Shown here: in pieces, positions 754-50,936 of the stretch
Position numbering within the stretch: the stretch's first letter is position 1
How the letters are laid out: each line of letters opens with the position of its first letter
From: Octopus vulgaris
Lineage: Eukaryota
Assembly (NCBI GenBank): GCA_951406725.2
Contig: OX597815.1
Location: forward strand, 147,064,001 to 147,128,000
Length of the DNA stretch: 64,000 nucleotides
Reading direction: 5' to 3'
Made by a program: the position numbers and the translations under genes
Notes under the pieces: model-generated
What the model saw: the letters and a program-made list of their open reading frames with translations, nothing else
What the model was told of the DNA's origin: nothing
The model's database searches: none

Positions 754-839
754 TCCATTACGGCCGTTTCTAGAGACACCTTTAATTAATTAATGAGTAC
801 ATTTTTATACCTCTAAAGAAGCAGTTGTCTTCAGATGGA
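754..839 (-). ncRNA. Minimal type I hammerhead ribozyme (family A)
   Basis: Minus strand: UCCAU-CUGAAGA-[long stem II closing UAGAG/CUCUA]-GAAA-CGGCCG-UA-AUGGA; stem I UCCAU/AUGGA, palindromic stem III, GUA cleavage triplet. Confidence 0.8.
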
Positions 840-1649
840 ACCTTTACAACGAAGAACATTCCAAATAATTTATCATAGTTTAAAATTTGTTTAAATCCCC
901 GGAGCCAACATTTCCAACCTTATGCTGCTATTTCAGTTGACAGAATGAATTTACCAAAAGGAAGTTTTTAGGTTAGTAGTGTATAAGCGACCTCCAGGGA
1001 CAAAATTATATATATATATACTTTAGTTATAAGCAGCTGACGCGTTTGTATTATGTCGTGTAGAAGATATATTGTGGCGATTTTTCTTGCTCCTTAATTT
1101 AATGTGTAAACTTCAAACTGACATCTTCTTAACGTGTCGGTATTCCATAGCAAGCTTTTAGTGTAGTTTATTCCCATTAGATATTTTATCGTTTCAAGAA
1201 CCCATTTACATAGTTCTCAGCGAACTGGATTATTTCCAGATTTTGTTGCAGTTTTAAGTTGAAGTATTCAATATGCCTTAGGGAGACATTGTGACACCTG
1301 CTACTTCATAGCTATTCTAATATTTTTCAAACCGGCAAATTGAGTAAGGTAATTGCCGAACTGGCTATGTTGCTTCATTGTTATATTTCCCAAACATATT
1401 AGTGCTAAAATCTGTTAATACAGATTTTAGACCACAGTCTCCCTTAATATATGAGAAATACACTTTGTCTATATCTCCAAGCATATTGAAGTTTCCAATC
1501 ACACTAAGATATTGATGCAACAATTAGAGGACATGTACGTATAGACACATACGTGTGGTGTACATCCACACAGCCACATACACAGATACGCATGTATATA
1601 TGTGTATAAATATATAAATGGGTGTCTGTGTGCTTGTGTGTGTGTTTTT

Positions 1650-1975
1650 GGCAGGAGGCTCAGTACTTAGAACGTCGGGTTTACAATCACAAGGTACGAG
1701 TTCGTTTGCTGGACCGGGCTGTGTTGTGTTCTTGAGCAAGACACTTTATATCACGTTGCTCCAGTTCACTCAACTGCAGAAACGAGTTTTGAGGTCCCTG
1801 GTGCCGAGCTGTATCGACCTATGCTTTTTCCTTGGATAACATCAGTGACATGGAGAATGGAGCCTGGTGTGCATGAGCAACTGCTGGTCTTCCATACAGA
1901 ACCTTGCCTAGACTTGTGCCTCGGAAGGTGTCTGTCTAGCTACAACTCCATGGTCATCCGTAATCAACGTGGCTC
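1650..1975 (+). mobile_element. Decayed tRNA-derived SINE
   Basis: A/B-box-like head (ggctcagtacttag...gagttcgtttgc) and core ttgagcaagacactttatatcacgttgctccag shared with 5192-5512. Confidence 0.7.
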
Positions 1976-2299
1976 TCTCACTTTCTCTCTCTTTCTCTCT
2001 CTCTCTCAGTATATATATATATATATATATATATAAGTATAAACAAAATGAGCACTTCGTTTAGGCTCAAAATTTCGGCTGTTTCGGCTTGTCGAGTCAC
2101 ATGTCGAACCACCGGTCTCCCAGAAGGCCTTCCGCCAATGATCTGGTTGTTTTGAACACACATGTTGTAAAGAGGAATATTTACTCTCCTACGATGTACA
2201 CTACAGCGACCTGCATATTTTGCCCAGACATGTTGCATTCAAATATGCAAGTAACCATTATATATATATATATATATATATATATATATATATATATAT

Positions 2300-3252
2300 A
2301 TTATATAAAAGGGCTTAGTAAAATAAATTACTTTGCCACATACTGAACTCATTAGAAATAGCAGCTAAAAAAATTTTTTTTAAACTATTTCTAATACTTA
2401 AAGAAAATCTCTCTCATATAGTGTTTGCTCAAGTCAACTCACGAAGGTATGGGGGTAAAGACATTAAAAAATCACAAATGCAAAGGTTATTTGAGAACGT
2501 ACGTTTCTAGATTAGTCAAATCGACATTTCTTTCGTCAGCTCAGAACTCCTTGATTCGGATTTGGGAACACTGAAAGTGGGAGCATACCCTTTTGGCTTA
2601 TTATCACTTCTGAAGATCTGCTCGAACTATCAGTGCTCGCAAATTCAAAATATGCAAGCGAAGAATCTCTGCTCTTCCCTTTCCACCACCGTGGGTTAAA
2701 ATTAGTAAACACTATGTTTTATCGGTAAAAACCGAAGCATTAAATAGAGAGAGATGAATTATAATTTCAACAATTGAGGGTAAAATTAATTAATTATTAA
2801 TCAATTTCACCAAGTATTCAGTATGCAAAGGGACCATTTAAGGCGAATTCAAATTATTACATTATATAAAAGGGCTTAGTAAAATAAATTACTTTGCCAC
2901 ATACTGAACTCATTAGAAATAGCAGCTAAAAAAATTTTTTTAAAACTATTTCTAATACTTAAAGAAAATCTCTCTCATATAGTGTTTGCTCAAGTCAACT
3001 CACGAAGGTATGGGGGTAAAGACATTAAAAAATCACAAATGCAAAGGTTTAAGTATTAGAAATAGTTTTAAAAAAAAATTTTTTAGCTGCTATTTCTAAT
3101 GAGTTCAGTATGTGGCAAAGTAATTTATTTTACTAAGCCCTTTTATATAATGTAATAATTTGAATTCGCCTTAAATGGTCCCTTTGCATACTGAATACTT
3201 GGTGAAATTGATTAATAATTAATTAATTTTACCCTCAATTGTTGAAATTATA
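2300..3252 (-). mobile_element. Non-coding Penelope-pLTR/retrozyme-like element (family B): 561-bp unit x1.33 plus inverted segment, inside (TA)n
   Basis: Direct repeat 2301-2488/2862-3049 (period 561); 3048-3252 is the reverse complement of 2760-2963; (TA)n on both sides; carries a hammerhead. Confidence 0.85.
2492..2543 (-). ncRNA. Minimal type I hammerhead ribozyme (family B)
   Basis: Minus: UGAG-CUGACGA-[stem II with GUC/GAC]-GAAA-CGUACG-UU-CUCA. Confidence 0.85.
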
Positions 3253-5191
3253 TATATATATATATATATATATATATATATATATATATATATATATTGG
3301 AGATTGATTACAACTTAAAAGATATTTCACTTTCATGCCCTTTAGAAAATGTAGTCACTTTGACTTTGATGAATTGATGTCGTTAGATAATGTGCAATGA
3401 CCATTAGATATTCCAGTCCTGAACCGTAATGCTCTCCTCTTGCTGCGTCGGAAGTGGTGGTCATAAAACTGCTCATATCCTGCTGGTTTGAAGCTTAGCT
3501 CCTCTCTCTTTGAATCTCACATTCTAGTCGCATCTGCCTTTCTGTCTCTTCCTAACACTGCAATGGCTCTCTAGACGTTCTCCAGCCTGACTGGACACAG
3601 AATCTTCTGCAACCAAATATCCAGACATGCAACTTCTTCTTGCAACAAAGCAGAGCTTTCTAGTATTCAGCATTTTCTAATAATTAGTAGGAGACAATGA
3701 TGTCTGAATATATATCTTTTTATTTTACCGTACATATCTGATGCAGACATTATAATTAACGGAAAAGCGAGTTTAAAAAAGACAGGGCATATTAGAAGGG
3801 GTAAAGAAAAGTGTTTCGATTATACGGTCACGGTATGGGGAGTGAGTGCCAAGGAAGTAAACTGTGAGGAGTAATGTGAAACTTGGATGGCAAGGAGGGA
3901 GCAACTGTGAACGTGGTATACATGTGTCAGCAAGTGCTGCCTGTATGTTCGCATACATGTTTGAGTGTGTGTTTGTGTGTGTCTGCATGTCTGTGTGTAT
4001 GAACCTATAACGTGCGTGTATATTGTGTTTCTGCGTGTGTATATAACTGAGTGTCTCCGTTTTGTTTTCCTCTGTGTAGAGGCTATCCGATATTATGTAA
4101 GTACAAGGGCATTTGTGTATATGAAGTTATAGTGTGCGTCTGTACCATATGTGTTTGTACGTGTGTAAATGTGCGTAAGCGCTCGTGTCTGTTTGTGTGT
4201 GTGTGTGTGTGTGTGTGCGTGGTGTGCTGTTTTCTGTTTGTGCATGTGAGTATGAGGCAATTATCATATACTAAATTTCTAGAAAATATTTTCACAGTGT
4301 CAGTAATAGATTGGAGGGGTAATTTTATTATGAGTCTTTCTTGTTTGAATAACCTAGTGTTTCAAGGCAGTTAGAACATACCATCCATAGTTTTTCATAT
4401 CATGAGTAATCATACTTTCCACGACAATGCCGCTTCATATATCAGCATCCAGTATTATTCTTTCTAACAACAGCATTGTGCAGAGAACTTATGTCCTTCA
4501 CATGATACCCCATAGATAGAAAATAACGGAATGATACGTTGGGGCTGCTAAATATGATGCGAGTGACATCCTCAATGTTATTTTCACTACCAAGGTGGTG
4601 TTCCAGCACAACCACGGTCCAATGACTGAAACAAGTAAAAGGATAAAAATATATGTATACTGAGTTCTTTCGTGAACCAGGAATTTGTTGTTATTTGCTG
4701 TTCATGTATTGCAATGGTATACAATCTAAGGTGAGAACTATCTCGTTTGCTGGGTCAAGATAAATTATTCTTGTTATCAATGTAACCATCTACGAGTTTC
4801 TGTTGATAGGCATACAGTTTTTCCTCTGATGACCTGTTTTGGAAGCTCTTTTCCGTGTGGATCCGCGGCCTATCAGTCAAAACATATTCTCTTAGGAACT
4901 TCTTTCAAACCTCGTACTGTTATCTGATTCATGGACGCAACTTTAGCTATAGATACACTTTAACAATTGAAGATTAGCAGGTGGTGTTAAAGGGAAATGA
5001 AGGGATATCCAAAGATTGTTTCAATCGATGTTTAACCTCTGATACTTTGCTATCATTGTATCTATGTATGTATGTATGTGTGTATGTATGTATGTATGTA
5101 TGTATGTATGTATGTATGTATGTATGTATGTATGTATGTATGTATGTATGTATGTATGTATGTGTGAGTGTGTGTGTGTGTGTGTGTGTGA

Positions 5192-50373: not shown

Positions 50374-50419
50374 AACACAACGTTTAGGCTGATACAACCT
50401 CTAGCCTTCATCAGATGTC
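50374..50419 (-). ncRNA. Hammerhead ribozyme, family I inverted copy (GAAA>UAAA mutant)
   Basis: Minus: GACAU-CUGAUGA-AGGCUAG..UCAGCC-UAAA-CG-UU-GUGUU. Confidence 0.7.
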
Positions 50420-50678
50420 TTGGGTAAATTTCGAACCTGGGTTCTCATTCCTAAGGTATTTTTCGTTGGTGTTATCATTATTATTCAGGTCACTGCAATA
50501 TGCCCACGGGCATATGGCGTAGTGGTTAAGAGCGCGGGCCACTAACCCCAAGATTCCGAATTCGATTCCAGACAGTGTCTTGAATAATAATAATAATAAT
50601 AATAATAATAATAATAATAATAATAATAATAATAATAATAATAATAATAATAATAATAATAATAATAATAATAATAAT

Positions 50679-50775
50679 GTACCTTTATCAGACGGGTAGT
50701 CATGATGGGTATATTGGGCTTCGTATATTTTACCCCAGTGTCACTTTGATGGCATGAACTGCTCTCTCACTCAAT
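50679..50775 (+). mobile_element. 3' fragment of the 28840-29220 family nested in the (TAA)n of family I
   Basis: gtacctttatcagacgggta..ttttaccccagtgtcactttgatggcatgaactgctctctcactcaataat with (TAA)n on both sides. Confidence 0.8.
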
Positions 50776-50889
50776 AATAATAATAATAATAATAATAATA
50801 ATAATAATAATAATAATAATAACAACAACAACAACAATGACACCGAAAAATACCTTAGGTATGGGAACCCAGGTTCGAAATTTCTCCAA

Positions 50890-50936
50890 GATACCTGATG
50901 AATGCTTGGAGAGTATATCAGCCGAAACGTTGTGTT
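50890..50936 (+). ncRNA. Minimal hammerhead ribozyme, family I
   Basis: gatac ctgatga atgcttggagagtatatcagcc gaaa cg tt gtgtt; stem II partly decayed. Confidence 0.8.

Follow-up and report, generated by a model that had tools for sequence, protein, structure and literature searches.

Hammerhead motifs in the window

The window, a 64,000-nucleotide stretch of Octopus vulgaris DNA, contains 11 hammerhead copies from nine families (F1 to F9), several of which are decayed. They follow the type-I frame of stem I arm, CUGANGA, stem II, GAAA, palindrome, UH, and stem I arm, and the core CUGANGA...GAAA...UH with its helix I arms is present in intact copies of all nine families. The initial annotation had described the bases between GAAA and UH as self-complementary; we confirmed this for all nine strings, in type-I hammerhead frames, and the palindrome observation is thus real.

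The F1 hammerhead (CGGCCG, positions 754-839, minus strand; stem I UCCAU/AUGGA) has a stem II base that is decayed compared with other copies and lies within a shared element of ~464-925, while an F1-related remnant at 17926-18012 (minus strand) no longer has stem III or the 3' arm of stem I. The F2 hammerhead (CGUACG, 2492-2543, minus strand; stem I UGAG/CUCA) is intact and identical to young copies, and its element extends over ~2259-3297. The F3 hammerhead (CAUAUG, 7736-7821, minus strand), whose core reads CUGAAAA with loss of G8, belongs to a piece of ~7641-7887 that is the end of a Hydra-type Penelope-like element with a full copy at locus L375. Three F4 hammerheads carrying CUAAGUUAG make up a tandem-plus-inverted array at ~8147-9697: a damaged copy with core GAUA (8438-8502, minus strand), forming the second repeat of a same-strand tandem with 507-bp spacing, an intact copy (8945-9009, minus strand), and another intact copy (9452-9516, plus strand) within an inverted, truncated copy at 9371-9682.

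The F5 hammerhead (15851-15895, minus strand; stem I CACACG/CGUGUG) carries the G·U palindrome CUCGGG and is an exception to UH, since C replaces U16.1 and the copy continues with CC; UC follows in most of the other 29 best F5 copies. The F6 hammerhead (CAGCUG, 16163-16220, plus strand), which has the core CCGAUGA throughout its family, is accompanied by an inverted, 5'-truncated piece (16135-16160, minus strand) that retains GAAA-CAGCUG-UA without the CUGANGA half. The F7 hammerhead (UGGCCA, 17174-17248, plus strand) has a decayed stem II in the window copy, and the F8 hammerhead (CAAUUG, 47953-47995, plus strand; stem I CCAC/GUGG) is intact. The F9 hammerhead (CG, 50890-50936, plus strand) is the classic loop-less minimal form, with G10.1 lost and stem II decayed here, and an inverted F9 remnant (50374-50419, minus strand) has UAAA in place of GAAA.

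A descriptor blind to stem III returned 214 distinct matches in 833 kb of loci, most of them the query families themselves, compared with 2.6 per shuffle. A descriptor that demanded stem II pairing directly next to the core failed to recover most copies, because bases at the foot of stem II are unpaired. Searching the genome with a pattern that left the four inner bases free gave 18,316 matches against 1,524 in the control. Rfam gave no match at gathering score in the window, and the 150 weak matches listed of 328 included no hammerhead, nearly all being microRNA models on simple repeats.

F2 and F4 form same-strand, non-coding tandems with one type-I hammerhead per unit, spaced at 556-561 bp and 507 bp, respectively. 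In the other seven families, only 0-1 of 30 copies had a same-strand partner within 1.5 kb, so a partner in cis is shown for F2 and F4 only. A joint at which assembled contigs, from runs not recorded as RNA, "go back" was rejected as a candidate signal: it equals the genomic tandem, and contigs cannot show cleavage ends.

Palindromy across repeat families

Every window motif is a member of a repeat family, with 74 to 2497 candidates per family at first look. In each of F2 to F9, the stem III string found in the window was also the most frequent one in the 30 best copies (28, 27, 27, 27, 24, 29, 29, and 18 of 30, respectively); stem III was not part of these queries. Because the sets include the window's own copy as well as loci that overlap, the counts mainly show recent ancestry. 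F1 was left out of this count because its query contained stem III.

Among the first 100 rows of the genome pattern, 71 were perfect palindromes, 14 were paired with G·U, and 15 were unpaired, against a background of 10.5% perfect palindromes and 10.3% with G·U, the rows being the first on contig C1 and the background the flanks of family loci rather than a random genome sample. Both inner positions were paired in 85 of the 100 rows, 71 of them by Watson-Crick pairs, with CAUUUG and GAAC as exceptions. Related copies differ by double changes (CGAUCG/CAAUUG and CGGUGCAUCG/CAAUGCAUUG), a compensatory series among relatives runs CUCGAG/CUCGGG/CCCGGG, and in F4 substitutions fall on the odd central base, with the paired bases unchanged. 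The proposal in the initial annotation that palindromy is kept by compensatory change was supported, with 71% perfect rows against ~10% in the background and double changes between sister lineages.

The clade of F8, with at least 3236 copies, also carries CGAUUG, CGAUCG, and CAUUUG. In 100 rows with one stem I, counted by eye, we found 44 CAAUUG, 33 CGAUUG, 11 CGAUCG, 8 CAUUUG, and 4 singletons. The U·U centre was present in 8/8 copies of one subfamily, and lineages with the A·A centre (GAAC) have multiplied as have those with U·U. Since the F8 tree requires 8 label changes, stem III turns over.

The palindromes had also been called family-specific, which holds inside the window but not genome-wide: stem III is not family-unique because five palindromes reappear in separate clusters (CAUAUG, CAAUUG, and CGAUCG in three each, CGUACG and CG in two each). 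For 17 hand-picked lineages, 11 collisions were observed versus 8.5 expected (P(<=observed) 0.87), and seven hexamers drawn from 64 are all different with P = 0.71; nine distinct palindromes in one window are a chance-level result. Several families of one species likewise share CG in the 2014 alignment of PMC4209133. Some same-palindrome clusters may be distant relatives, in which case reuse would be retention and not convergence, although stem III is not family-unique either way. The c12 and c15 clusters share a weak 50-nt match.

Predicted dimers and monomers

We calculated nearest-neighbour energies from single natural copies; they include neither core nor tertiary terms. The predicted double hammerhead is a nested dimer structure with an intermolecular stem I. 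Window homodimers were predicted at -2.1 to -13.3 kcal/mol, except for F9 (+2.9 kcal/mol), while all 36 window heterodimers were predicted to be unfavourable: 26 fail at the first pair of stem I, and the remaining 10 would cost +6.4 to +23.6 kcal/mol. Stem I was also predicted to block 9 of 11 same-palindrome pairs. In this model, exclusion between families is done mostly by stem I, which is likewise exchanged in the dimer. Stem I still forms 3-4 bp in 7 of the 72 ordered window pairs, and stem III is therefore left as the discriminator in these.

For sisters on a common stem I, a full double change was predicted to cost ~+3 kcal/mol (F8 with its CGAUCG sister), +6 kcal/mol (c12 with c12b), and +8 kcal/mol (CUCGAG with CCCGGG) relative to the homodimer mean. 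By these estimates, stem III would discriminate between such sisters by ~3-8 kcal/mol, and some orthogonality would exist, probably as a by-product of drift. In contrast, CGAUUG with CGAUCG was predicted at -10.2 kcal/mol, compared with -5.2 and -8.2 kcal/mol for the homodimers; G·U forms are thus predicted to bridge sister lineages with a common stem I through heterodimers as stable as homodimers. A table of isolated stem III duplexes was discarded because it was asymmetric and poorly enforced end constraints.

The palindromes had been considered too short to close a stable hairpin. The CG forms indeed cannot close as monomers, but CUAAGUUAG can close a hairpin of 4 bp around a 3-nt loop. The inner palindrome pairs are not available to a monomer hairpin that has two pairs and a 4-nt loop.

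Link to Penelope-like elements

Four families (F3, F5, F7, and F8) are tied to Penelope-like RT/GIY-YIG genes. Read by eye from translations, the full F3 element (L375) has RW (as RWL, not RWK) and DKT motifs, CxxC and CxH, and no CCHH. Upstream of one F5 copy (L121) is the remnant of an RT-EN gene, and upstream of one F7 copy (L158) are a CxCX5C linker and a weak GIY-YIG remnant; an F8 copy abuts an RT that is 47% identical to that of F3. RT look-alikes were also found. Pfam gave no RT match for the F3 or F5 proteins and nothing relevant for L375; one GIY-YIG in a flank (L066, not an F3 gene) was above cutoff, and RVT_1 and GIY-YIG were otherwise weak. A sequence search of solved structures with two RT pieces found no match. 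In 30 loci each, F1, F2, F4, F6, and F9 showed only tandem or inverted layout and no link to an RT gene, and two long F8 units with inverted flanks (L373 and L374) showed no RT remnant.

Craig et al. 2021 (PMC8557442) described the Hydra clade of Penelope-like elements. By motif comparison, F3 resembles the clade in RW, DKT, CxxC with CxH, and a GIY-YIG-like region at the C-terminus that lacks CCHH, and the F7 copy at L158 resembles it in CxCX5C. The F3 unit differs in being ~3.5 kb against under 3 kb, and the linker of L375 is low-complexity with no CxCX5C seen.

Comparison with known ribozymes

Minimal hammerheads in pseudo-LTRs of metazoan Penelope-like elements were described by Cervera and de la Peña in 2014 (PMC4209133), and the initial annotation's link between palindromic stem III and double-hammerhead dimers agrees with the proposal made there. 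The ribozymes described in that paper match ours in type-I topology, short helix I, long helix II, and a palindromic 15.2-16.2/loop 3, as well as in having many families per genome, mostly as solo truncated copies, inverted pairs 100-700 bp apart, and a proposed dimer action. Its alignment already contains differing palindromes (CG, UACGCGUA, UAGGCCUA, and CAGUACUG), although palindromes of 6-10 nt are common here, and not the 2-nt CG form. Dimer-cleaving hammerhead variants of Penelope-like retrotransposons, reported by Lünse, Weinberg and Breaker (RNA Biol), as summarised in PMC6765202 and PMC6466107, share the short palindromic stem III and tandem layout. The accessible text of PMC4209133 holds no cross-family dimer analysis that we could find, and the literature searched yielded no heterodimer test or barcode proposal, which does not establish its absence from print.

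The consensus given in PMC4209133 (over 80%) has an extra nucleotide after A9 and a G10.1-C11.1 pair, with A-U, U-A, and G·U exceptions. In contrast, this pair is absent from most families here, where the position is usually A-U, U-A, or a mismatch: it is strictly present only in copies of the F9 family, and F3 and F4 have G·U. Among the 76 rows with stem I of at least 3 bp, 35 had a mismatch, 25 A-U or U-A, 3 G-C, 11 a weak pair, and 2 another combination. This free 10.1·11.1 position is a minor core variant of a described ribozyme type.

Non-LTR retrozymes (PMC7229834; bioRxiv 10.64898/2026.07.22.740005) resemble F2 (~557 bp) and F4 (507 bp), whose genomic units follow one another on the same strand, are non-coding, and carry a single hammerhead each. 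They differ in that the F2 and F4 ribozymes are of the minimal type and form short arrays, many of which end in an inverted copy.

Interpretation

Taken together, we consider it likely (probability roughly 0.8) that these are minimal type-I hammerheads in the pseudo-LTR ends of many Penelope-like lineages and their non-autonomous, partly tandem derivatives, acting as double hammerheads with a drifting palindrome. Each copy would supply the 5' arm of stem I, the core, and stem II for cutting at the site of the other. Because the copies would act on each other's cleavage site, stem I and stem III would both be paired between them, and because two identical strands would be joined antiparallel, stem III would have to be self-complementary. 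Almost any palindrome should then work, with a bias to C...G ends, and lineages would drift between palindromes with G·U forms as the intermediates, stem I drifting as well. Poor cross-pairing of distant families would arise as a by-product, mostly through stem I, and the usual partner would be the neighbouring copy within the same tandem transcript. Most genomic hammerhead copies are dead; cleavage, use of dimers in cells, and neutrality of palindrome choice are what we infer. Points against this reading are the five families for which no RT gene was found in 30 loci each, the missing Pfam RT matches for the F3 and F5 proteins, the scarcity of close same-strand partners outside F2 and F4, the predicted discrimination between sisters that differ by a full double change, the absence of G10.1-C11.1 from most families, and the normal in vitro insertion seen with hammerhead mutants of one element (PMC11167929).

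The initial annotation's interpretation survives in part, in the dimer-type minimal hammerheads, the compensation, and the 36/36 unfavourable window heterodimers. Stem III as a family-unique, selected code does not, given that palindromes are reused, collisions are not rarer than random, stem I excludes most pairs, and G·U forms bridge. One speculative extension, to which we assign a low probability, is that stems I and III form a two-arm address. Sisters sharing stem I (CAAUUG versus CGAUCG; CUCGAG versus CCCGGG) would be pushed apart against cross-cleavage or trapping, with G·U forms as generalists pairing with both, giving a compatibility network of RNAs among competing retroelements that might assemble on a dimeric element protein and respond to the RNA level of the family.

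Also improbable is a selected self-recognition code in which stem III, with stem I, diverges so that coexisting lineages avoid cleaving or trapping each other's RNA, an effect that would matter most among sister lineages still sharing stem I. The unfavourable window heterodimers, the ~+3, +6, and +8 kcal/mol costs on a common stem I, the 7/72 ordered pairs in which stem III is the sole remaining discriminator, and the 8 label changes in F8 would all fit such a code. However, collisions are not depleted (11 versus 8.5), seven distinct hexamers are unsurprising, bridging G·U forms are abundant (33/100), lineages with U·U and A·A centres also multiplied, and CG is common to several families of one species in the alignment of PMC4209133.

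We also doubt that the longer forms act mainly as monomers (with a stem III of 2-4 bp plus loop, helped by protein), or that the motif is a structure for the element protein, with the palindrome secondary. The active monomer fold was predicted to cost only 2-7 kcal/mol in the eight window families able to form one, F4 forms 4 bp, non-palindromic centres and the free 10.1·11.1 position are tolerated, and a helix III of 2 bp plus tetraloop is described as the more stable, invertebrate-like type in PMC7229834. A monomer would, however, give no reason for complementary loop bases, yet both inner positions pair in 70 of the 76 rows with stem I of at least 3 bp and change in compensatory fashion, and the CG forms cannot close as monomers.

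We found no evidence for the copy-number sensor that had been suggested. A copy-number or expression sensor, in which same-family transcripts dimerise in trans and cleavage rises with RNA level to limit or license transposition, is very improbable: homodimers are predicted to be favourable and most families lack a close same-strand partner, but tandem units would dimerise in cis, independently of concentration, and the predicted -4 to -13 kcal/mol corresponds by hand arithmetic to a Kd of ~1 mM to 0.4 nM, mostly far above likely transcript levels. In PMC11167929, a Penelope protein that assists its hammerhead is modelled as a dimer and could bring two RNAs together, but no RNA-seq reads ended at the cut site, and hammerhead mutants of the one element did not impair insertion in vitro, which thus needs no cleavage.

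This genome adds one more that is rich in an already described ribozyme type. If divergence of stem III were selected, it would amount to RNA-based self/non-self recognition among transposons and provide natural orthogonal dimer ribozymes. As a natural test set that could help address the role of these ribozymes for Penelope-like elements, the genome offers no fewer than 18,000 matches to the motif, series of compensatory changes on an unchanged stem I, and pairs that have the same palindrome but differ in stem I.

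Hammerhead copies in the window

A relaxed type-I hammerhead scan of the window, which is AT-rich with abundant microsatellites, located all nine palindrome strings between GAAA and UH, as the initial annotation had described, in 11 copies; the CUCGGG copy, which came from a string search, has CC rather than UH after it. No Rfam match to the window reached its gathering score. The copies starting at 2492, 8945, 9452 and 47953 agree with intact family members, the core of copy 16163 (CCGAUGA) is the family-wide form, and the remaining copies are damaged in the core or stem II. 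A possible tenth hammerhead with a 3-bp stem I lies at 312-391 (+) (CUGAGGA...GAAA CAUACG UA).

In contrast with published minimal hammerheads, the G10.1-C11.1 pair at the stem II base is often lost here, with 3 G-C pairs and 35 mismatches among 76 rows. U·U, A·A, A·G, A·C and C·A mismatches were seen at L291-L372, loci from the first 100 pattern 2 matches (see below), and in the window at 2492-2543, 15851-15895 and 47953-47995. The two bases vary almost independently in the clade of F8, the CAAUUG family, while two CG-type families retain an extra base and a G-C at the stem II base. Published accounts include an axolotl hammerhead with U·U at 10.1·11.1.

Palindromy is conserved across lineages

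Searches of the 2.8 Gb genome (227 contigs) with the window motifs returned nine multi-copy families. When eight were queried with sequences ending at GAAA, so that stem III lay outside the query, the palindrome seen most often was that of the window (18-29 of the best 30 copies), and deviating best copies mostly carried a single change that breaks pairing, as expected for decay following insertion. A stem III-blind scan of 833 kb of loci gave 214 distinct matches, in 29 clusters, versus 2.6 per shuffle. Genome-wide, pattern 1 gave 2358 matches (control, 336) and pattern 2, with the inner four bases free, 18,316 (control, 1,524). Among the first 100 pattern 2 matches listed, all from contig C1, 71 were Watson-Crick palindromes, 14 paired with G·U and 15 were unpaired, against backgrounds of ~10% Watson-Crick and ~10% G·U-paired.

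Related copies differ by the double changes CGAUCG/CAAUUG and CGGUGCAUCG/CAAUGCAUUG and form the series CUCGAG/CUCGGG/CCCGGG, and in F4, whose palindrome has an odd central base, this base is lost or altered with its neighbours unchanged. Palindromy is thus kept by compensatory change. Some families carry stem III inserts of 9-14 nt (L159:2259(-), L129:2712(-), L152:3047(-), L161, L204, L254; for example UCACAUGUGA, CAAUGCAUUG, UCGGUCCGA) and could fold as monomers, yet their loops are palindromic in several cases.

Palindromes are reused and stem I limits cross-pairing

The stem III palindrome is not family-unique, contrary to the proposal that each family carries its own as a dimerisation barcode: CAUAUG, CAAUUG and CGAUCG each occur with three different stems I, and CGUACG and CG with two. 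With 16 options, 17 hand-picked C...G lineages would be expected to give 8.5 colliding pairs; 11 were observed. The probability that seven hexamers drawn from 64 all differ is 0.71. A 2014 alignment includes CG common to several families within one species (PMC4209133).

The double hammerhead exchanges stem I between copies as well as stem III. In energies computed for one copy per family, omitting core and tertiary terms, 26 of the 36 window heterodimers lack a possible first stem I pair and the other 10 lie at +6.4 to +23.6 kcal/mol; eight homodimers fall at -2.1 to -13.3 kcal/mol and that of F9, the CG family, at +2.9. Nine of 11 identical-palindrome pairs are blocked by stem I, the others reaching +1.1 and +6.6. 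Full double changes on a common stem I are predicted to lie ~3, ~6 and ~8 kcal/mol above the homodimer mean, and a stem I of 3-4 bp is possible in 7 of the 72 ordered window pairs, so stem III adds discrimination, although stem I does most of the blocking. These costs and pairs would favor a selected stem III code; we nevertheless consider one improbable, given the reuse and collisions of palindromes and the multiplied bridging and non-palindromic centres described next.

The F8 clade (3236 genome matches; control, 0) comprised, in 100 rows counted by eye, 44 CAAUUG, 33 CGAUUG, 11 CGAUCG, 8 CAUUUG and 4 singletons. CGAUUG occurs in many copies of one subfamily where no CGAUCG was seen, and is thus not CpG decay alone; its computed dimers (-7.1 with CAAUUG, -10.2 with CGAUCG, -5.2 with itself) bridge both sisters. 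A single stem II type is common to the CAUUUG rows (8/8), indicating that the U·U centre was propagated; in the subfamily comprising L304 and eight F8-clade rows, every copy seen is CAUUUG, with a tandem U·U homodimer centre. A tree of 54 copies built without stem III needs 8 label changes. Stem III is therefore permissive where lineages have stem I in common.

A large hammerhead-like family (GAAA-GAAC-UC, stem I GACCA/UGGUC) comprises L271, L272 and roughly one in four genome pattern 1 rows; its centre is non-palindromic and too short for a monomer loop, and its homodimer is predicted at +2.8 kcal/mol.

Mechanism

The hammerheads are real and of a known kind; the motif type and its palindrome were already published in 2014, together with the dimer model and the diversity of families. 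With palindromes reused, stem I excluding most pairs and G·U forms bridging sisters, the barcode reading, which we did not find in the portions of the literature searched, is largely unsupported. Most likely (probability roughly 0.8), two neighbouring motifs in a tandem transcript would fold together as a double hammerhead, with cleavage after UH; stem III self-complementarity would be required while its letters drift via wobble steps. That distant families cross-pair poorly would be a by-product, mainly of stem I. Double-hammerhead action has been proposed for Penelope-like elements (PMC4209133), and reviews also cover their dimer action.

Monomer or structural use appears slightly less probable still than a selected code: a monomer hairpin, with its two pairs and tetranucleotide loop, cannot form the inner palindrome pairs, which points to pairing between copies. 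For one characterised element, the hammerhead is described as needing the element's protein, as dispensable for insertion in vitro and as leaving no cleavage ends in RNA-seq (PMC11167929). A copy-number sensor acting in trans, also raised initially, is the least likely.

Carrier elements

Locus L375 holds a complete unit of F3, the CAUAUG family: inverted hammerhead, interrupted RT-endonuclease frame and sense hammerhead, in that order. It resembles Hydra-clade Penelope-like elements, as far as these are described in PMC8557442, in RW, DKT, CxxC, CxH and the lack of CCHH. Pfam gave no RT match for F3 or F5 (CUCGGG) proteins; Atlas RT look-alikes included RVT_1 and HTH_animal in a share of members. 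In the F3 element (L375:234-3036; window 7788-7856 (+)), the frame 5' of the first conserved motifs crosses the antisense hammerhead region.

RT or endonuclease remnants lie upstream of F5 and F7 (UGGCCA) copies. One F8 copy adjoins an RT with 47% identity to that of F3, and part of this region is also present, at 98%, within a second F8 unit. No RT link was found for F1, F2, F4, F6 or F9 among 30 loci each. F2 (CGUACG) and F4 form non-coding tandems with ~557 bp and ~507 bp units and have a same-strand partner at 9/30 and 18/28 loci; the other seven families have one within 1.5 kb at 0-1 loci each, and often an inverted partner.

Other window repeats

Fragments at 39008-42162 (-), 49659-50129 (+) and 63363-63998 (-), judged by eye from their translations, resemble non-LTR retrotransposon genes and are presumably endonuclease, RT and zinc-finger pieces. 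A repeat with a tRNA-like head, which we take to be SINE-type, occurs at 10188-10569, 26633-27041 and 55235-55671. The top microRNA matches were spurious, originating from a short element at 20009-20121 that has inverted repeats around a (TA)n centre and is partially repeated at 52441-52495. A 184-bp inverted pair occupies 18569-19224.
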